From NCBI GenBank assembly GCA_030018585.1, contig JASEHZ010000003.1:1-39757 (forward strand): DNA of 39,757 nt, in the 5' to 3' direction. The notes under the pieces were generated by a model that was given only the letters and a program-made list of their open reading frames with translations, made no database searches and had not been told where the DNA came from. The stretch is from Patescibacteria group bacterium (GTDB lineage Bacteria > Patescibacteriota > Minisyncoccia > UBA6257 > GWB1-50-10). The position numbers were made by a program, and so were the translations under genes. Below are positions 7,093 to 29,607 of the stretch, in pieces; within the stretch, counting starts at the first letter, position 1; every line of letters starts with the position of its first letter.

Positions 7093-7376
7093 CCCCCACA
7101 CCAAATTTATTTTAAACTCTCCACTAATCTCTTTTTGAGTTGTGTAAAGGCTCGACTTCGAAGTTTTGGGCTTGATTCTCTGCGTCGAGCGTCCGACTCC
7201 GCTTTGTACGCCTCGAAACACAACAACTCAAAGGGACAACGAGTTTTTGTGGAAAATATTTTTCCACTATTATGCTCTTGAAGTCGTCGTCTCAAATCAT
7301 TAATCGAACCAATATAAAATTTATCGTCTTTCAAGTTTTTTAAAATATAGACGTAGAACATAATTTGGTGTGGGGG
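7093..7376 (-). mobile_element. Inverted-repeat-bounded GIY-YIG cassette 1
   Basis: acccccacaccaaatt (7092-7107) / aatttggtgtgggggt (7362-7377) perfect; taaa direct repeat at 7089-7092 and 7377-7380; extra arm copy at 7028-7042. Confidence 0.7.
7107..7361 (-). CDS. Small GIY-YIG nuclease (UPF0213/SLX1-like)
   Basis: FYVYIL...FYIG...DLRRRLQEHN...RE motif set. Confidence 0.85.
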   Translation of the reverse strand: MFYVYILKNLKDDKFYIGSINDLRRRLQEHNSGKIFSTKTRCPFELLCFEAYKAESDARRRESSPKLRSRAFTQLKKRLVESLK

Positions 7377-12846: not shown

Positions 12847-13241
12847 GCTGTTTTTGACTAAAATTTCAAGCCCAATTGCAGCGCAGAAAATTTAGCTGCG
12901 AATTTGAGCACCGAGCACATAAAACATAAAACCAGTGTTCGATATTTCGACTTGTTGATTTGTATTATTAAAATTGATGAATATCATATGTTATCTTTAG
13001 TAATTTATGTGCTCGGTAAGTCACCGCACTATCCCGACTCCGACTGCGGTCGGAAGAGGTTTAGGTGCGCGATCCCGCACCCTCCTGAACCCATAATCTT
13101 ATCATCTCTTTACGGGCTCGGGAAGTGCGGGATCCTCGCACCTTCGACGCTCATTCCATTCGCGGGAAGGTGCGGGAGTTTTGTCTATAAAATTACTTCT
13201 TCGCCAGCTGGCGAATCGTAATTTTATACAAAGCCCTTACT
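12841..13241 (-). promoter_or_regulatory. Candidate structured cis-regulatory RNA upstream of rplQ (copy A)
   Basis: Multiple perfect stems and colinear motif conservation with 15520-15802. Confidence 0.65.
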
Positions 13242-13986
13242 TCTTTTTGCCCTTCTTTTCTTTTTCTTTATGTTTAACAACCTCAACTTTAAGAACTTCT
13301 ATGGCGGAAATTTTATCAAAATGATCTTTCAAAATATTGGCTGATTTATGAACAGCTTCTGAGGGACTAATTGAACCATCGGTTTCCACTTCAAGCTGCA
13401 GACGATTGTAATCAGTTCGATCACCGACGCGCATATTTTCAACAAAAAACGTCACTCTCACAATTGGCGAAAAAATAGCATCGAGCACAACCGTGCCAAC
13501 CGGCAATCGCTCAAGACGACGCGCTTCGGCTGGCACATAACCCAAACCCTTTTCAACTGTTAATTCTGCATCAAAATCAGCGTTTTTCTTTGTTAAGCTC
13601 GCAAGATAAAGTTCTGGATTTACAACTTTAACCAAAGTCGTACTTTGAATATCGGATGCTTTTATTTCTTTTTCGCCTTTCGCTTTTAAAGCTAAAACCT
13701 GCGGCTCTTCGGCAAAAAAATGAAAACGAACTTTTTTTAAATTAAGAGTGAATTCAACAATGTCTTCTATCATTCCCGGCAGAGTCGAAAATTCATGATC
13801 AATATTTTTAATTTTAATTTGAGTAATGGCTGCTCCCGGCAACGACGAAAGCAGTGTCCGACGGAGAGCATTGCCTAAAGTATTGCCATAACCAGTATAA
13901 AGACCTTCAATGTAAAAAATGCCGATATTTTCTTTTTCGGAAATTTTTTTAATTTCGACTGTTTCGCTTAAACGTGAATATTTCAT
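13237..13986 (-). CDS. rpoA: RNA polymerase alpha subunit, lacking the alpha-CTD
   Basis: GYGNTLGNALRRTLLSSLPGAA, HEFSTLPG..ED, VENMRVGDRTDY; ends in Lys-rich tail at 249 aa. Confidence 0.95.
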   Translation of the reverse strand: MKYSRLSETVEIKKISEKENIGIFYIEGLYTGYGNTLGNALRRTLLSSLPGAAITQIKIKNIDHEFSTLPGMIEDIVEFTLNLKKVRFHFFAEEPQVLALKAKGEKEIKASDIQSTTLVKVVNPELYLASLTKKNADFDAELTVEKGLGYVPAEARRLERLPVGTVVLDAIFSPIVRVTFFVENMRVGDRTDYNRLQLEVETDGSISPSEAVHKSANILKDHFDKISAIEVLKVEVVKHKEKEKKGKKK

Positions 13987-15525: not shown

Positions 15526-15802
15526 GCCGATTATGTATAAATTTTCGAGTCTGTAGACGATGAAAATTTATCTACAGAATCGAGCACCCCGCCCTTTTGC
15601 TTTCGTGAATTTGAATCCTGAAACAAAGCAAAGCGGAGCCCAGCACTACAACTTCGTTGTAGTGCTGGACGGAGCGATCCGACTTCGTCTTTATTTTTAT
15701 ATGTTTTCATAAATATTGCCATAAAAGGGCGGGGTAAGGTTTGATTAATAAATTTTCTGTTTCGTCAGCTGACGAATTGAAAATTTATATCAAGCCCTTA
15801 CT
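15520..15802 (-). promoter_or_regulatory. Candidate structured cis-regulatory RNA upstream of rpsM (copy B)
   Basis: Multiple perfect stems and colinear motif conservation with 12841-13241. Confidence 0.65.
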
Positions 15803-15916
15803 TTAACCTTGCCTTTGTTTATGTTTGGGATTCTGACAAATAACATAAACGCGCCCTTTGCGGCGAACTGTCTTGCATTTCATACAAATCTTTTTTACTG
15901 ATGATCTTACTTTCAT
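15803..15916 (-). CDS. rpmJ: 50S ribosomal protein L36 (missing from the ORF track, 37 aa)
   Basis: Manual translation [37 protein letters not shown]; CxxC...C...H zinc ribbon. Confidence 0.97.
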
Positions 15917-16202: not shown

Positions 16203-16424
16203 TTAGAGTCTTCTTACAATTCTGCCTCGCCGCGCATCATAAGGCGTCATTTCAACTATCACCCTATCGCCGGGGATTACCCTGATTCTGTTTAATTTTA
16301 ATTTGCCGCCCAAATGAGCTAAAATTTCCTGATCGCTATTATTTGGCTTAATTTTAAATAATAGACTGGGCAGAGCTTCGAGAACAATGCCTTCTATTCT
16401 TTCTATCTTCGAATCTGGTGCCAT
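16203..16424 (-). CDS. infA: Translation initiation factor IF-1
   Basis: EG.VLEALP, ILAHLGGKL....IRVIPGDRV.VEMTPYD..RGRI. Confidence 0.96.
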   Translation of the reverse strand: MAPDSKIERIEGIVLEALPSLLFKIKPNNSDQEILAHLGGKLKLNRIRVIPGDRVIVEMTPYDARRGRIVRRL

Positions 16425-19303: not shown

Positions 19304-19370
19304 TTATTGATATTATAACACAAGTAAAAAACGACTCTGTGCTTCTATTCCTGCCTTACTACTGTAATAG

Positions 19371-23803: not shown

Positions 23804-24715
23804 TCAAGTACACCTTTTCCTGCTCCACAGGAAAAGTAAGGGACTAGCCACAAAAATCGAGGAATAAGTGCCAAAAACCGTACCTACTAAAATTGTCAAA
23901 ACAAAGTAAAAAAGCGAGGCTGGCCCCACCAAAAGCAAAGCCAGAAGCACGAAAATAAGAGTCAGGGAAGTATTTATTGATCGGACGAAAGTTTCATTAA
24001 CACTAAAATTAATAATCTCAGCCAAGGTTGATCTTCCTCTTCTTAATAAAAGATTTTCCCGAATCCGGTCAAAAACAACAATTGTGTCATGAACCGAAAA
24101 GCCCATAACTACAAGAAGAGCAACTATGAAATTAGTATCAATTTCTATGCCCTTAAGTTCGCCTAAAAGCGCAAGCAAACCCGCGGGGATGCAAACGTCG
24201 TGAACTAAAGTAAGCAATGTCACCACGCCATACTTCCAAGATTTTACTGGCTGTGAAACCTTTCGAAAAGCCCAAGCAATATAAAGCGATATGCCAACCA
24301 GAACTAAAATAATAGCCCAAATTGATTTTCGTCTTAATTCTGAACCAATAGTCGGTCCGATGCTCGAAAAGCTTTTTTCTTCAAATTCGCCTAATCCTTT
24401 CAAGGTAGCAACAAAAGATTGGTGATTTTTTTCATCAATGGCTGGTAATCGAATAATAAAACTTCCGTCGCTTACGCTTTTTACCGACGCTTCAATGCTG
24501 CGCGTCGAATCGCTCAAAACGCTTTTGATAATTTCTTCTGGCGCAACTAAAGCCGAACTAGCGGTAAATGGCTTAAAACCAATATGCCATTCAGTGCCGC
24601 CCGTCAGATCAATAGCGGGGTTAAAGCCAAAAATAATTATAAAAACCACCGCCACAGTCAAAATAATTCCAGAAAAAACAAAAAATATATTTCTCTTTCC
24701 GATTAAATCAAACAT
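23804..24715 (-). CDS. secF: Protein translocase subunit SecF
   Basis: IDLTGGT, IGPTIGSEL, HDV, GFSVHDTIVVFDRIREN, RSINTSLT, GTYSSIF.ASP. Confidence 0.95.
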   Translation of the reverse strand: MFDLIGKRNIFFVFSGIILTVAVVFIIIFGFNPAIDLTGGTEWHIGFKPFTASSALVAPEEIIKSVLSDSTRSIEASVKSVSDGSFIIRLPAIDEKNHQSFVATLKGLGEFEEKSFSSIGPTIGSELRRKSIWAIILVLVGISLYIAWAFRKVSQPVKSWKYGVVTLLTLVHDVCIPAGLLALLGELKGIEIDTNFIVALLVVMGFSVHDTIVVFDRIRENLLLRRGRSTLAEIINFSVNETFVRSINTSLTLIFVLLALLLVGPASLFYFVLTILVGTVFGTYSSIFVASPLLFLWSRKRCT

Positions 24716-24717
24716 AA

Positions 24718-26034
24718 TTATTTTTTGATATTTTGATTTTGTCTCCCGACCGGTAAATTTATATCATCGGTTTTCGTAAAAACTCTAAGAATAGTCCTAG
24801 TAATCGTGATGGCTGAAAACATGCTAACCACCACGCCAAGAAATAAAGTCAAAGCAAATCCCTTCACAAAACTTGAAGTGGAAAAATAAAGTACGGCTGC
24901 CGTAATCATGGTGCTGATATTTGAATCCCTGATAGAAGTCCAAGCCCGTTTAAACCCTTCTTCAATGGCGGCTTGTTTTGAAAAGCCCTTTTTCAATTCC
25001 TCTCGAGTCCGCGCAAAAACCAAAACATTAGCATCTACGGCCATGCCAATAGACAAAATAAATCCTGCCACGCCAGCCAAAGTTATTGTCACCGGCGTAA
25101 TTTTAAAAATAGCCAAAGTTAAAGCAATATACATCAAAAGCGCAACCGAAGCGAAAATACCAAACAAATGATAATAAACAATCATAAAAACCATAACTGT
25201 CAGAGTGCCGATCGCGCCAGCGAAAATTGCCTTGCTTAAAGCGTCCTTGCCAAATTCAGCGCCAATAGTCTGCTGATTAATAAGCTTGATTGGTGCGGGC
25301 AGCGCGCCAGCGTTAAAACGCTCAACCATAGCTCTTGCCTGATCAATGGTATATTTTCCTGTTATTTGGGCTTTGCCGCCGGCTATTTTTTCCCGGACCG
25401 TCGGCATTTCAATTAATTCGTTATCGAGAAATATTGCCAAAGGCTTACCCACATTTTTCTCCGTCAATTGCTCGAAAATTTTCGCGCCCTCGCTGTTGAA
25501 CTCTAATTGGACTTCCGGCGTCCGCGTTACTGAATCAAAAGAAACTTGAGCCCGCGTAATATAACGGCCATTCAAATTAGTCGGCGTAAATTTTAATGCC
25601 GTTGAAGTCGTATTATCTTTTCCAACCTCTTCACTTGTTTCAACTTCCCTGAAATCCAAAAACGGCGTTTCGCCGATTTCTTCAATAGCTTGGTTTACGT
25701 CTTTAATGCCAGCGAGCTCAACCACCAAACGGTTTGTTTCACCAGTAGTTTGAGTATAAACTTTCGGCTCGCTCACGCCAAAAAGATTAACTCTTTTTTC
25801 AATAATGTCTCTTAATCCTTTTACAACGTAATCGCGGTCTGTTGAGGCAATTTGATTTAAATCAATGTCGTAAATCAAATAAGTGCCACCTGCTAAATCC
25901 AACCCCAGACTCCAAGTCCTAAAAGAACTTACTTTTTTCCAAAGCGGATCATAATCAAAAAAAGCGGCTCCCAAAGAAAGCGCAACAAGAATTAACAAAA
26001 CCAGAACCAATGTTTTCTTTTTTCGACTAAACAT
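24718..26034 (-). CDS. secD: Protein translocase subunit SecD (start reassigned to ATG 26034)
   Basis: LGLDLAGG, RVNLFGVSEP, AGALPAP, IGMAVDANVL; upstream start would overlap the divergent gene. Confidence 0.95.
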   Translation of the reverse strand: MFSRKKKTLVLVLLILVALSLGAAFFDYDPLWKKVSSFRTWSLGLDLAGGTYLIYDIDLNQIASTDRDYVVKGLRDIIEKRVNLFGVSEPKVYTQTTGETNRLVVELAGIKDVNQAIEEIGETPFLDFREVETSEEVGKDNTTSTALKFTPTNLNGRYITRAQVSFDSVTRTPEVQLEFNSEGAKIFEQLTEKNVGKPLAIFLDNELIEMPTVREKIAGGKAQITGKYTIDQARAMVERFNAGALPAPIKLINQQTIGAEFGKDALSKAIFAGAIGTLTVMVFMIVYYHLFGIFASVALLMYIALTLAIFKITPVTITLAGVAGFILSIGMAVDANVLVFARTREELKKGFSKQAAIEEGFKRAWTSIRDSNISTMITAAVLYFSTSSFVKGFALTLFLGVVVSMFSAITITRTILRVFTKTDDINLPVGRQNQNIKK

Positions 26035-26041
26035 GGATTCC

Positions 26042-26051
26042 AGTATATAAT
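26042..26051. promoter_or_regulatory. Overlapping divergent -10 boxes, each 7 nt from an ATG
   Basis: Plus TATAAT 26046-26051 then ATG 26059; minus TATACT 26047-26042 then ATG 26034. Confidence 0.6.
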
Positions 26052-26058
26052 ATATAGT

Positions 26059-27081
26059 ATGAAACATCAACTAACCGTCCTCCTTTTAGGGGAAGTTCGA
26101 AGATCGGTCCGCGGTCAAATTTTCCAAAGAAAGCCCTTAAAAAGCGCGCCTCATTATTTTGAGATTTCTGTCCCCAACCAAGTAATTATTAACGAGGATA
26201 AGGTTGATATTGACGGCCGTGAAGTCGTAGTCCAAGTTAAAGGTTATGCGCCCGATATTCTTGTTGTTCAAACGTCTCTGGAAGTACCGAATATTTTCGA
26301 CCGGGAAAGGATAAGTATTCTTGAAACCCATATTTTGGAACACGCTTATGAAATTTTGAATAAAAACGGCGGCAAAAAAGAGACAAGTGAAACTTATTCG
26401 GTTTTCACTGTTTCCGGCTACGAAGGCGACCCCGACCAATTTTTCGTAAATGCCGATATCATCGCTTCTCTTTTAAAATCCGAAAAGTTAAAACTTGATC
26501 CTGATGAAGTAAATTATACTTTAGCGGCTCAAATTAAATACGCAGAAAATGACGCCACGATTATTGACTGGGACGGTGCGTTTATTTTTGACCCCGAAGG
26601 CGATGTTGAAGCGACAATTGAACTTCTAACTCTCGCCAATCTCCAACTTCTACGTTATCGCATTCTTGACCGACAACTTGATGAACGGCTGGAGCACATG
26701 GCTGATCTTGTTAAAATCCCCCAATCAAAATTCTCTTTCCGAGCCAATCCTCAACTCAAAGAAAATCTTAAAAAGGCTCTTAAACACCGGATGGAGTCTG
26801 TAACCAGTTTTAGAACCGTTGAACGGGAAATTAAATTAATCGGCGACTGGTATTCGGCCCGCATTTACGATATTGCTACCAAAAAATTCAAAATCAGCGA
26901 ATGGCGTAATTTGCTGAAAGAAAAAATGGAAGCCATTGAAGGAATTTATTCTATTTTTATAGAGAATTTTACTCTTTCCAGCAAAGATCGGGCTGAATTT
27001 TTACAAATTATTTTATTCTTTATCTTGCAAATTGGCTGGCTAGTGCTTATAATTCTTGAATTTCAATATTTTACGAAATAA
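26059..27081 (+). CDS. Hypothetical protein with C-terminal TM (RMD1/DUF155-like, tentative)
   Basis: 340-aa ORF; IDWDGAFIFD, ANLQLL...LD..LD helical region, terminal hydrophobic helix. Confidence 0.6.
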   Translation: MKHQLTVLLLGEVRRSVRGQIFQRKPLKSAPHYFEISVPNQVIINEDKVDIDGREVVVQVKGYAPDILVVQTSLEVPNIFDRERISILETHILEHAYEILNKNGGKKETSETYSVFTVSGYEGDPDQFFVNADIIASLLKSEKLKLDPDEVNYTLAAQIKYAENDATIIDWDGAFIFDPEGDVEATIELLTLANLQLLRYRILDRQLDERLEHMADLVKIPQSKFSFRANPQLKENLKKALKHRMESVTSFRTVEREIKLIGDWYSARIYDIATKKFKISEWRNLLKEKMEAIEGIYSIFIENFTLSSKDRAEFLQIILFFILQIGWLVLIILEFQYFTK

Positions 27082-27183
27082 AAAATCCCCCAGCCAAGGT
27101 CGGAGGATTATTTAAAATTATTTATAATTCGTCAACTATAATACTCTTTCAATTAAGAATCACAGATTTTTCACAACAAATAC

Positions 27184-27211
27184 TTAACAAATAATTTTAA
27201 AAAGTTATAAT
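27184..27211 (+). promoter_or_regulatory. Possible sigma70 promoter for the ncRNA candidate
   Basis: TTAACA-16 nt-TATAAT. Confidence 0.4.
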
Positions 27212-27233
27212 TCTATCCAGAACTTAAAAATAA

Positions 27234-27475
27234 GGCTTTGGAAGAAAATAAAAAATGATTCCGCGATGCTAGCTTAAAGGAACAGTCTAAACTCATTTTG
27301 TTTTAATGAGGGTTGAAGGTGCGACTTTGCGTTGAATCGGAAAAGCTATTTTGTTTCTGGCCGGAAGATTACAACAATGAGCGCAACCTAAGTATGGACC
27401 CAGAGCGGCCAGAACCCATCAGAATCAAGTTAAGCCCGGAGGCGAAGCAAGATCTGATAAGACTAAACCAAAGCC
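27234..27475 (+). ncRNA. Unidentified structured non-coding RNA candidate
   Basis: GC-enriched ORF-free island with an 8-bp closing stem and at least six internal helices; promoter-like site upstream, hairpin downstream. Confidence 0.6.
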
Positions 27476-27486
27476 CTTTATTATAA

Positions 27487-27517
27487 AAAAGCCGCAGATC
27501 AAAAATCTACGGCTTTT
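27487..27517. terminator. Terminator-like hairpin, possibly bidirectional
   Basis: aaaagccgcagat-caaaa-atctacggctttt. Confidence 0.6.
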
Positions 27518-27556
27518 ATATTTACTTTTAAAAATAGAGGGGTTAAAATATTCAAT

Positions 27557-27931
27557 ATGAAACCGGAAAAATTTGACATTGATCCTACAGCCAGAAAGTC
27601 TGAAATTGTTATTGATGAAGCATTGGAAAAAATAAGAGGCCTTCAGGGCGATGTTGCGGCTATTAAAGGCACCGTAAAAGATTTTATTGTGACTGAAATT
27701 TTAAGAACACAAAATATGAACGGCGAAGAAAAGGCCCATAAATTAGCAAAATATTTGAAAGACGACATAGAAAACTTTATTTTTAATTCCAATAAAGATG
27801 CGGACGAAGAAATTAAAAAAGACACTCTTCAATATCTTCAAAATTACCTCCTAGGAGATGTAGAAAATTTACCCCCCAATAATCCAACACAAAAAAATAA
27901 TGAAAAAGAAAATGATTTCGAAAGCACTTAA
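27557..27931 (+). CDS. Hypothetical protein, probably leaderless
   Basis: 124-aa ORF; TTTACT-17-TAAAAT (27521-27549) lies 7 nt before the ATG. Confidence 0.6.
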   Translation: MKPEKFDIDPTARKSEIVIDEALEKIRGLQGDVAAIKGTVKDFIVTEILRTQNMNGEEKAHKLAKYLKDDIENFIFNSNKDADEEIKKDTLQYLQNYLLGDVENLPPNNPTQKNNEKENDFEST

Positions 27932-27994: not shown

Positions 27995-28032
27995 AAAATA
28001 AAAAGGTTCAATTAATTGAACCTTTTTATTTT
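27995..28032. terminator. Perfect 38-bp palindrome between convergent genes; bidirectional terminator
   Basis: aaaataaaaaggttcaattaattgaacctttttatttt. Confidence 0.65.
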
Positions 28033-29255
28033 CCGATATAGGATCTTATATTTAAATTCCTTAAATTCCGATGATAAGCAATAGCAAAACGATGCGCTTC
28101 ATCACGAATCTTAATTAAAGTTTTTTCTTCAATTCCATCAGGAATTTTTCCGATAAATTTGTTGTTTTTTCTTTTTTTGCCTTTAGCAATGCCAATAATG
28201 GGGGTTTTTAAGCCGGATTCCTGCAAAACAGTTTCCGCGGCATTCACCTGACCCTTCCCGCCGTCAATTAAAATCAAATCAGGCAATTGCCATCCCCCGA
28301 CTGGCAGGAATCTGTTAAGCCGCCTTCGTAAAATCTCTTTTAACATTCCAATGTCGTTGGCTTTTTTAATTGTTCTTATTTTAAAATGACGGTATTCACT
28401 TTTAACCGGTTTGTCGCCTATAAAAACTACCATTGAGCCAACGGCAAAAACTCCTGAAATATTGGAAATATCATATCCTTCAATTCTTAATTCCTGATTC
28501 TTAATTCTTAAATTTTCCACGTCGTTGTCATTAATTAAAGCAATGTCCTGGATATGTTTTAAAGCAAAAATCTGACGTTTAATTTTCTCAGCTTTCTCAA
28601 ATTTAAGATTTTTACTTTGTTTTTTCATTTCGTCTTCCAAAGATTTTATTATTTTTTTCTTTTTGCCTTCTAAAAATAACTTAAACCGCCTGATATTGCC
28701 TAAATACGCGTTTTTATCCACTGCCCCGATACAAGCGCCCGGACACAAACCAATTTCATAATCAAAACAAGGGCGTTTTGATTTATTAACCGATTTCTCC
28801 GGATGAGTATTCCAAGGAAATATGCGCCGCAAAATCCTTAAAGCCTCTTTTAAATTTACTGCTGAAACAAAAGGCCCGTAAATTTTGCTTGATTTAGCAG
28901 ACGCAAGTTCTTTGCCGCGAACCAAAAGCACCCGCGGAAATTCTTCACTCGTAATTTCCACATACAAAAAACTTTTATCGTCTTTTTCTTTGATATTGTA
29001 CGGCGGCTGATATTTTTTAATTAATTCGGATTCTAAAATCAATGCTTCTAAAGCGCTATCGGTTTTTTTATAATCAATCTTCTGTATTTCTTGTACTAAT
29101 TTTTCAATTCTTAAATCATGCGCCCGTTCAAAATACGAAGAAACTCTACGCTTTAAATTTCCAGCCTTGCCAATATATAAAATTTCACCCTGCGCATTTT
29201 TCATTAAATAAACACCCGGCGTTTCAGGTAGTTTTTTATATAAATCTTTTGTCAT
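28026..29255 (-). CDS. uvrC: Excinuclease ABC subunit C, compact form (start reassigned to ATG 29255)
   Basis: LPETPGVYLM...YIGKAGNLKRRVSSYF, RIEGYDISN, PDLILIDGGKGQ, RDEAHRFA; no HhH tail. Confidence 0.92.
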   Translation of the reverse strand: MTKDLYKKLPETPGVYLMKNAQGEILYIGKAGNLKRRVSSYFERAHDLRIEKLVQEIQKIDYKKTDSALEALILESELIKKYQPPYNIKEKDDKSFLYVEITSEEFPRVLLVRGKELASAKSSKIYGPFVSAVNLKEALRILRRIFPWNTHPEKSVNKSKRPCFDYEIGLCPGACIGAVDKNAYLGNIRRFKLFLEGKKKKIIKSLEDEMKKQSKNLKFEKAEKIKRQIFALKHIQDIALINDNDVENLRIKNQELRIEGYDISNISGVFAVGSMVVFIGDKPVKSEYRHFKIRTIKKANDIGMLKEILRRRLNRFLPVGGWQLPDLILIDGGKGQVNAAETVLQESGLKTPIIGIAKGKKRKNNKFIGKIPDGIEEKTLIKIRDEAHRFAIAYHRNLRNLNIRSYIGK

Positions 29256-29313
29256 GGCAAAATTAGTATCTACCAGATAAATATTTTTCTCAAATAAGGT
29301 TCGATAAAAATTT

Positions 29314-29339
29314 AAAACCCCGTTATTGAATGGGGTTTT
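29314..29339 (-). terminator. Terminator-like hairpin overlapping the stop of the Cys-rich gene
   Basis: aaaaccccgtt-attg-aatggggtttt. Confidence 0.5.
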
Positions 29340-29607
29340 GTGTATCTTTTTTCTTAAAAAACACGTGGCATCGACAATTCCCATTTTCTTTTGCTTCTTT
29401 TAATCCTTGTTCGCAGGGACACGGCCCCCGCAAAGGCTCGCAAGGACAAATTCCTCCTTTTTCTAAAATAAACTTTGCCAGACCATAATTTCCAATAGCC
29501 GGATTTTCATAATACTCGCCATGAAGAACTAAACCGTTTTCTGCTGCAACTTTTTGCAACTTTTCTAAAAATTTTTGAATTTCTTCTTCAGATATTACTT
29601 TTTCCAC
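29323..29607 (-). CDS. Ferredoxin-thioredoxin reductase catalytic-subunit-like protein
   Basis: CPC...CPC...CRC spacing matching the CPC/CPC/CHC FTR signature. Confidence 0.7.
   Translation of the reverse strand: MEKVISEEEIQKFLEKLQKVAAENGLVLHGEYYENPAIGNYGLAKFILEKGGICPCEPLRGPCPCEQGLKEAKENGNCRCHVFFKKKDTQNPIQ

Follow-up and report, generated by a model that had tools for sequence, protein, structure and literature searches.

A candidate small RNA gene of no known family in an intergenic gap of a Patescibacteria chromosome

The genomes of Patescibacteria are tiny and, to our knowledge, very few non-coding RNAs have been described for these bacteria; our literature search for described structured RNAs in Patescibacteria found nothing relevant. 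The described systems that come closest to the locus considered here are the bacterial small RNA (sRNA) genes that stand as G+C-rich intergenic elements in A+T-rich genomes. Long G+C-rich intergenic regions have served as an enrichment criterion for structured RNAs, according to the accessible part of the source (PMC8723152). The present locus lies in a 475-nucleotide (nt) gap between the open reading frames (ORFs) ORF340 and ORF124, on a piece of chromosome from a Patescibacteria (Candidate Phyla Radiation) group bacterium (GenBank assembly GCA_030018585.1, contig JASEHZ010000003.1). We analysed positions 1 to 39,757 of this contig, hereafter the window; the core of the candidate RNA occupies 27234-27475 on the plus strand, as do all features below unless stated otherwise. 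We favour reading the locus as an independently transcribed small non-coding RNA gene of a narrow Patescibacteria lineage, a reading that we consider about evenly balanced between right and wrong. The predicted RNA matches no known family, and its closest kind is the bacterial sRNA gene. With such genes it shares a sigma-70-type promoter, a terminator, a helix-clamped island of raised G+C content, the lack of a coding signal and the lack of an adjacent gene that would explain the element. It differs from them in that no homologues of the candidate were found and in that the folding energy of its core is not exceptional.

Composition and transcription signals, and not folding energy, are the strongest evidence that the element is real. 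A promoter-like site of the sigma-70 type, TTAACA-16-TATAAT, lies at 27184-27211 and matches the consensus at 11 of 12 positions. Only four sites in the 39.7 kilobases (kb) of the window, both strands taken together and this one included, score at least 11/12, and two of the other three sit upstream of genes (those ending at 16424 and 9396). On the far side of the core, folding revealed an intrinsic-terminator-like hairpin with a UUUUAUAUUU U tract (27487-27524, the hairpin itself at 27487-27517). Its 12-base pair (bp) stem has one C-A mismatch and a 5-nt loop, and its energy of -13.3 kcal/mol was equalled by none of 200 dinucleotide shuffles, the chance test used throughout (z -5.5). A simple consensus terminator scan did not list this hairpin, which we attribute to the mismatch. 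Between the two signals the G+C content rises to 0.434 (27234-27475), compared with 0.243 and 0.247 in the flanks and 0.387 and 0.323 in the neighbouring genes. The window as a whole is A+T-rich (32 to 42% G+C per kb), and of the 19 other intergenic stretches that measure 60 nt or more, 13 have a G+C content of 0.31 or less. The ends of the G+C-rich island coincide with a closing helix, with the strong promoter before it and the strong terminator after it. None of the six reading frames gave a Pfam match at an expectation value (E) up to 10, ORF57, the only long frame inside, has no NCBIfam or PHROG match either, and the candidate region does not look coding. An initial annotation of this DNA had proposed a free-standing RNA between a promoter-like site and a hairpin; the 11/12 promoter, the terminator with its z-score of -5.5, the G+C island and the absence of coding all bear this out. 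Its own promoter, its own terminator and the missing coding signal are also the features by which an independent sRNA gene is recognised.

When sequence and pairing were checked, every stem and motif listed in the initial annotation was found in place. The two ends of the core are joined by the helix GGCUUUGG/CCAAAGCC (27234-41 / 27468-75), which has a pair probability of 0.97; this and all other pair probabilities come from a folding model that allows nested pairs only. Through AAUAA at 27229-33 and UUAUU at 27478-82 this closing helix extends to 13 bp with a 2-nt bulge, the 5-bp extension having a probability of 0.58. In the pairing analysis and the folds, its 5' strand, extension included, covers 27229-27241, and the segment 27460-27482 consists of AGACU, AAA and then the 3' strand. 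Two local hairpins are well defined. Hairpin A, CUCAUU-UUGUUUU-AAUGAG at 27292-27310 (probability 0.76), has an energy of -3.5 kcal/mol that was matched by one of 200 shuffles (z -4.4); a second AAUGAG at 27376-81 is a possible alternative partner in it. Hairpin C, an irregular hairpin of 41 nt at 27418-27458 (probability 0.89 to 1.0), pairs AUCAGA with UCUGAU (27418-23/27453-58) around GCC-CGGA-GGC and contains two symmetric internal loops and a CGGA loop; at -12.3 kcal/mol it was matched by two of 200 shuffles (z -3.0). A 9-bp G+C-rich helix, UUCUGGCCG/CGGCCAGAA (27355-63 / 27406-14), has a probability of 0.35 because a long irregular hairpin competes with it in the minimum-energy fold. The domain that it closes (27355-27414) encloses 42 nt, among them CCUAAGUAUGG at 27387-97, and is not significant (z -1.3, 23 of 200 shuffles as good).

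The remaining pairings are less well defined. An A-rich linker at 27242-27283, with the G+C-rich block UUCCGCGAUGCUAGCUU, stays unpaired in the nested models. It has complementary partners at 27327-39 (11 bp, interrupted by a 2-nt bulge) and 27343-48, pairings for which the nested model gives probabilities of at most 0.06 and for which an excess over chance was not demonstrated. The same model gives GAUUC/GAAUC (27257-61 / 27334-38) a probability of 0.06 and UAGCUU/AAGCUA (27270-75 / 27343-48) one of 0.007; the latter does cross the former, as had been annotated. AGUCU/AGACU (27284-88 / 27460-64), nested within the closing helix, reaches 0.44. Perfect stems of 9 bp or longer turned up in 142 of 1000 shuffles of 27215-27485; in 47 shuffles such a stem was accompanied by a second one of 8 bp or longer, and in 53 a stem of 8 bp or longer spanned at least 200 nt. 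If G-U pairs are allowed, 311 nt offer more than 200 stems of 5 bp or longer, and therefore short stems carry no weight. Only the closing helix, the hairpins at 27292-27310 and 27418-27458 and the terminator hairpin are beyond chance; the crossing helices and AGUCU/AGACU are at chance level. The annotated notion of a structured RNA with pseudoknot potential is weakly supported, the z-score of the core being ordinary and the crossing helices no better than chance. A transcript of the minus strand was considered and rejected, as the sequence to the right of the element has no promoter-like site on this strand, and the G-U pair 27430-27447 of hairpin C would become a C-A mismatch there. Separately, a direct repeat of 22 nt, 73% identical, links the presumed transcript start (27218-27239) with the loop and 3' arm of the terminator (27495-27516), and may be due to chance or may be a trace of the origin of the element.

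Production, stability and action in trans of the RNA are what we infer from the signals and the composition. Transcription would start about 7 nt past TATAAT, near 27218, and would stop at the intrinsic terminator near 27520, giving a primary transcript of about 300 nt. In such a transcript a helix of 8 to 13 bp would clamp both ends of the RNA, and this clamp together with the terminator hairpin should shield it from exonucleases. The two well-defined hairpins and the 9-bp helix would be separated by A-rich and U-rich single strands, the probable surface for contact with a protein or RNA partner.

Several results weigh against an independent RNA gene. The core folds with -60.9 kcal/mol, an energy that 21 of 200 shuffles equalled (z -1.44), and on its minus strand nine of 200 were as good (z -1.73). 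The putative transcript 27218-27520, terminator included, does better than the core (z -2.71, one of 100 shuffles) because the terminator helps. Many alternative folds exist, and those constrained to differing helix sets are no more than 5 kcal/mol apart. Read-through into ORF124 may also occur. Relatives of the locus were collected by a scan of genome contigs for ORF340, which matched 238 stretches and yielded 91 relatives, from which 80 loci were kept. None of these 80 loci contains a homologue of the candidate RNA detectable by nhmmer at E up to 10, and blastn against them returned only words of 12 to 18 nt (E at least 1.1). A covariance model with 42 pairs, built from the single sequence, recovered the element itself at 326 bits from 1,212,459 bases, and the other 20 matches listed had at most 14.7 bits and E of at least 0.1. 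Phage records held no homologue either, and plasmid records gave four matches to the terminator or the 5' leader, with a query coverage of 9 to 14%. The homologue collection proposed along with the initial annotation therefore came back empty for the 80 loci, the phage records and the plasmid records, and with no homologue found there is no evidence of conservation and no covariation. Finally, the gene order SecF-SecD-ORF340 is kept in only two (L001 and L009) of the 33 Patescibacteria-type loci inspected, and both of these lack the candidate RNA and ORF124. An opposite-strand gene follows the ORF340 homologue at once in L001, and other genes fill the interval to UvrC in L009. ORF124 is absent from all 80 ORF340-anchored loci (tblastn, best E 2.6). 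Because both are missing from the 80 loci, the candidate RNA and ORF124 are, relative to these genomes, a putative insertion or a putative lineage-specific pair.

A point of context in favour of an RNA gene comes from related genomes. In 7 of the 33 loci (L006, L007, L008, L012, L017, L022 and L038) the ORF340 homologue is immediately followed by a transfer RNA (tRNA) gene, tRNA-Ala(CGC), and therefore the slot downstream of ORF340 is commonly used for stable-RNA genes. A tRNA-Val occupies it in L026, and a 23S ribosomal RNA (rRNA) gene is found further downstream in L006, L008 and L017. The same slot in the window holds the candidate RNA instead of tRNA-Ala(CGC).

Searches for known families covered the window and its relatives. 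Rfam 15 gave no match at the gathering score anywhere in the window, and the Infernal comparison with Rfam, made with the unpermuted sequence, produced no family match. With E allowed up to 10, the region 27050-27600 (551 nt) returned 26 weak matches, which fall on two terminators or on edges and nearly all on the minus strand; leader-type models appear only on the minus strand over terminators, with E from 2 to 10. At the same limit, 27225-27485 (261 nt) returned only a small nucleolar RNA fragment (E 8.5) and an internal ribosome entry site fragment (E 4.5). No model of group I introns, ribonuclease P (RNase P), signal recognition particle (SRP) RNA, 6S RNA, transfer-messenger RNA (tmRNA), riboswitches or T-boxes was among the Rfam matches at E up to 10. 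ARAGORN found no tRNA or tmRNA in the window, and together with Rfam it leaves the window without a tRNA or an rRNA. The statement that the RNA is not a tRNA, tmRNA, RNase P, SRP or 6S RNA hence agrees with both ARAGORN and Rfam. As controls, the RNase P RNA of one Nitrospirota locus (L042) scored 278 bits and a group I intron in locus L006 (RF00028) scored 55.3 bits. Over the 33 Patescibacteria-type loci (438 kb) Rfam identified tRNAs, three 23S genes, one 5S gene and that one group I intron, and no RNase P, tmRNA, SRP or 6S RNA. With neither the L006 intron nor the RNase P RNA of L042 does the candidate RNA share more than words of 7 to 8 nt. Structural grounds were also considered: tmRNA was rejected on the negative results of ARAGORN and Rfam and on a closing helix whose third pair is C-G, compared with the G3-U70 of the tmRNA acceptor stem, and SRP and 6S RNAs on the missing model match and on a fold that is multi-branched and not one long interrupted hairpin.

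What could such an RNA mean for these bacteria? An RNA gene that is strongly promoted and belongs to no family is a reasonable lead to an RNA function specific to a lineage. The main value of the locus is as a defined target, with a position, ends and helices, although it is a single sequence as yet. It could be the first-seen member of a new class of structured RNAs of about 250 nt confined to a Patescibacteria lineage, with a strong promoter and seated in the tRNA-Ala(CGC) slot, but we hold this to be quite doubtful. If it were true, the helix-clamped core could be catalytic or could be the scaffold of an RNA-protein particle, and in the boldest version the locus would encode an RNase P-like RNA without a specificity domain. 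The ribozyme reading, which was the source of excitement about this locus, is unsupported.

Among the explanations that compete with an sRNA gene, a functionless relic is unlikely by our estimate. The element would then be a decayed gene or a foreign remnant of higher G+C content that a promoter-like site precedes by accident, with stems due to chance. The ordinary energy z-scores of the core would fit, as would the shuffles in which a 9-bp and an 8-bp stem arose together (47 of 1000, as given above), the absence of the element and of ORF124 from the syntenic L001 and L009, and the fact that 9.7% of all 242-nt windows across the 39.7 kb reach the G+C level of the core. Repeats within the core (AUUUUGUUU, AAUGAG, CGGAA and GAAUC, each present twice) moreover allow alternative pairings. 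Yet the G+C-rich island and its closing helix coincide with a promoter of top rank and a strong terminator, and no trace of a protein family is seen in any of the six frames. One may instead suppose that the RNA acts in cis, as a riboswitch-like or attenuating leader of ORF124, in which a signal decides on the terminator at 27487-27517 and ORF124 is expressed by read-through. The layout would suit this, a promoter being followed by a helix-closed structured region, a terminator and then, 36 nt on, a gene on the same strand, as in riboswitch and attenuator leaders. AAAGCC is found at 27470-75, within the closing helix (3' strand), and again at 27488-93, within the 5' arm of the terminator, and GGCUUU both at 27234-39 and at 27511-16, so that mutually exclusive pairings are possible; ORF124 is also conserved in at least two other metagenomic records. 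Against a leader stand the missing match to any Rfam riboswitch, T-box or leader and to any known aptamer, an A tract and a U tract that flank the terminator as in an unregulated bidirectional terminator, and an ORF124 without a known function that would suggest a ligand. ORF124 has, besides, a possible promoter of its own, TTTACT-17-TAAAAT at 27521-49 (9 of 12 consensus matches), whose -10 box lies 7 nt ahead of the ATG and fits the short-leader style of several genes in the window. We rate a leader of ORF124 as quite unlikely. Type III toxin-antitoxin systems, in which an RNA antitoxin, a terminator and a toxin gene follow one another, resemble the locus in the order of promoter, RNA, terminator and small ORF; a type III antitoxin was rejected, as the RNA has no tandem repeats and Pfam, NCBIfam and PHROGs assigned ORF124 to no toxin family. 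That the transcript is instead translated from ORF57, the only long frame inside the candidate RNA, seems very improbable. ORF57 (27313-27486) is an open frame of 57 codons that begins with TTG, or alternatively with a GTG at 27319 that has GAGGG 6 nt ahead of it, and ends just before the terminator. Its codon score of -0.12, however, falls short of the 5th percentile for real-gene pieces of 57 codons (0.15; median 0.375), and its G+C content at third codon positions, 0.53, falls outside the range of the 34 genes (0.26 to 0.43). A Shine-Dalgarno-like word, furthermore, is seen in few of 34 upstream regions inspected by eye. ORF57 is missing from the predicted proteins of the contig, and none of 5.8 billion protein clusters holds a relative that shares words with it. 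An exhaustive search of 1.84 billion representatives returned two matches only (E 5.5e-6 and 6.4e-5), both to internally repetitive proteins that match many times along a stretch of about 20 residues. One of these proteins is of the FAM186A type with PQQAQ repeats, and we read both matches as repeat artefacts.

The two remaining rivals to an sRNA gene would tie the RNA to known ribozymes. Group I introns are defined by the P3-P7 pseudoknot, with a strand order of P3, P4-P6, P7, P3', P8, P7', and their splice sites are marked by a U-G pair in P1 and a terminal G. The initial annotation had suggested that the RNA carries the group I S and R elements in permuted order. An actual group I intron of 264 nt sits in the 23S rRNA gene of L006 (15925-16188 of that Harrisonbacteria record, 55.3 bits), and in it the R word GUAGAGACUAUAC precedes the S word GGAAGAUAUAGUCC, the canonical order. 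The focal GAUAAGACUAAAC and GGAACAGUCU do resemble the R and S words of this Patescibacteria intron, CGGAAGAU is common to both RNAs, and the two are of similar size. The run of AGACU, AAA and the 3' strand of the closing helix also mimics P7-J7/3-P3'. In the focal RNA, however, the S-like word comes first, and the topology does not follow. The closing helix, the would-be P3, encloses AGUCU/AGACU, the would-be P7, in the order P3, P7', P7, P3'; this is nested, so that the RNA is neither a group I intron nor a circular permutation of one, and a non-circular rearrangement would be needed. No P8 was found, in line with the annotated remark that a canonical one is not evident. Nor is there a host gene, the flanks being the promoter-like site and the terminator in a window without tRNA or rRNA. 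RF00028 failed to match the unpermuted sequence, whether at the gathering score across the window or with E allowed up to 10 for the 551 and 261 nt, whereas it found the L006 intron, with which only the 7 to 8-nt words are shared. The halves of an 11-nt tetraloop receptor normally sit on opposite strands of one helix. Both halves were correctly noted at 27387-97 (CCUAAGUAUGG), and count as a further likeness, but the receptor cannot form here because CCUAAG and UAUGG are directly adjacent. As for a precedent, a literature search for a natural circularly permuted group I ribozyme led, among the matches listed, to permuted group II introns only, as far as the accessible part of the source extends (PMC8637638). 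The suggestion of permuted S and R elements accordingly finds no support, and a group-I-derived RNA, whether a rearranged ribozyme or an intron remnant, is in our opinion extremely improbable.

A drastically reduced RNase P RNA that has lost most of its specificity domain (S-domain) has somewhat different points in its favour, and we regard it as highly unlikely. Threaded in this way, AAAGGAACAGUCU would be J3/4 and the 5' strand of P4, whose 3' strand would be the AGACU that immediately precedes the closing helix on its 3' side. Both the wording and the nested order (P1, P4, P4', P1') would then resemble the Rfam class A consensus (RF00010), GAGGAAAGUCC ... ACAGAACCCGGCUUA and then P1'. As in class A RNAs, a short long-range helix lies just inside the closing helix, the joining segments are A-rich, and GGAA(C)AGUC resembles the conserved region I (CR-I) of the consensus. 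The P4 helix of RNase P RNA carries a bulged U, in agreement with the Rfam class A consensus, whereas AGUCU/AGACU is a perfect 5-bp helix without one. The RNase P RNAs of this radiation have diverged: in the accessible text of one report, 10 of 35 were missed at Rfam thresholds, the missed ones came to light at scores of 5 bits or higher, and P12, P13, P14, P15 or P18 is missing from some (PMC8172020). Similarly, the Pyrobaculum RNase P RNA does without nearly the whole S-domain, and bacterial ones typically measure 340-420 nt, compared with 242 nt for the focal RNA (both from the part consulted of PMC4919922). No RNase P model (RF00010, RF00011 or a related one) matched the 261 nt at E up to 10, in a search that showed other families at scores of 10 to 15 bits; a match of 5 to 10 bits may exist. 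The strict CR-I spacing pattern and the CR-V spacing pattern, both of which fit the RNase P RNA of L042, are missing from 27279-88 and 27452-65, so the likeness comes without validated spacing. Comparison with the consensus by eye gave no convincing CR-IV, J5/15, P3, P5, P15 or S-domain, and two partial threadings conflict with each other. Across the loci, a rigid search for RNase P words found only the Nitrospirota gene in L042, and a loose pattern pair returned hundreds of chance pairs.

The neighbourhood of the candidate sRNA gene is otherwise one of housekeeping genes. Nearly all genes of the window lie on the minus strand, ORF340 and ORF124 being the sole plus-strand genes near the locus, and SecF and SecD (23804-26070), UvrC (28026-29384), TGT, UvrA and UvrB are found nearby. 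ORF340 (26059-27081) is the upstream neighbour. Its family is widespread, with 834 proteins at E of 0.001 or less in Patescibacteria and Nitrospirota, and without known function; its precomputed Pfam label is PF27233. The nearest relatives of ORF340 are from Jorgensenbacteria, Minisyncoccia and other Patescibacteria, the farther ones from Nitrospirota, and homologues at 67-70% identity exist in metagenome and viral contig collections. The downstream gene ORF124 (27557-27931), which lies outside the RNA and is considered for context only, has a codon score of 0.535 that marks it as a real gene, and its distribution is narrow: two homologues, 64% and 74% identical, were found in metagenomic records. 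Searches of Pfam, NCBIfam, PHROGs and a protein atlas gave nothing usable on its function. Several genes of the window, ORF340 included, carry TATAAT 5 to 9 nt before the start codon. This spacing (for instance in the upstream regions 26034-26058, 2550-2574 and 19304-19328), together with the scarcity of Shine-Dalgarno-like words, suggests leaderless or very short-leader mRNAs. An independent short-leader transcript for ORF124 is plausible because several genes here share this style.

Other parts of the window also drew our attention. A second G+C-rich intergenic element, with 44% G+C, lies on the minus strand at 12900-13190, in the rpoA-rplQ gap (12847-13236). It folds with -112.2 kcal/mol compared with -71.5 kcal/mol for its shuffles (z -7.67, none of 200 as good) and consists of a near-perfect inverted repeat of about 30 bp and a second long hairpin. 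No Rfam family matches it, the 80 loci contain no relative, and it could be a structured RNA in a ribosomal-protein operon or a palindromic DNA element. RpoA itself (13237-13986, minus strand) is only 249 amino acids long, and its Pfam matches are to the N-terminal dimerisation and insert domains only. Pfam gave no match to a C-terminal domain, and the 390-nt gap that follows has no minus-strand frame that could provide one. A free-standing ORF of 84 amino acids with a GIY-YIG nuclease domain (7107-7361, minus strand) stands in an otherwise non-coding gap of 575 nt. Finally, an 88-nt direct repeat, 70% identical, occurs after rpoA (13178-13265) and near rpmJ (15739-15826); it contains the palindromic hairpin TTCGCCAGCTGGCGAA and a variant of it, and is probably a shared terminator module.

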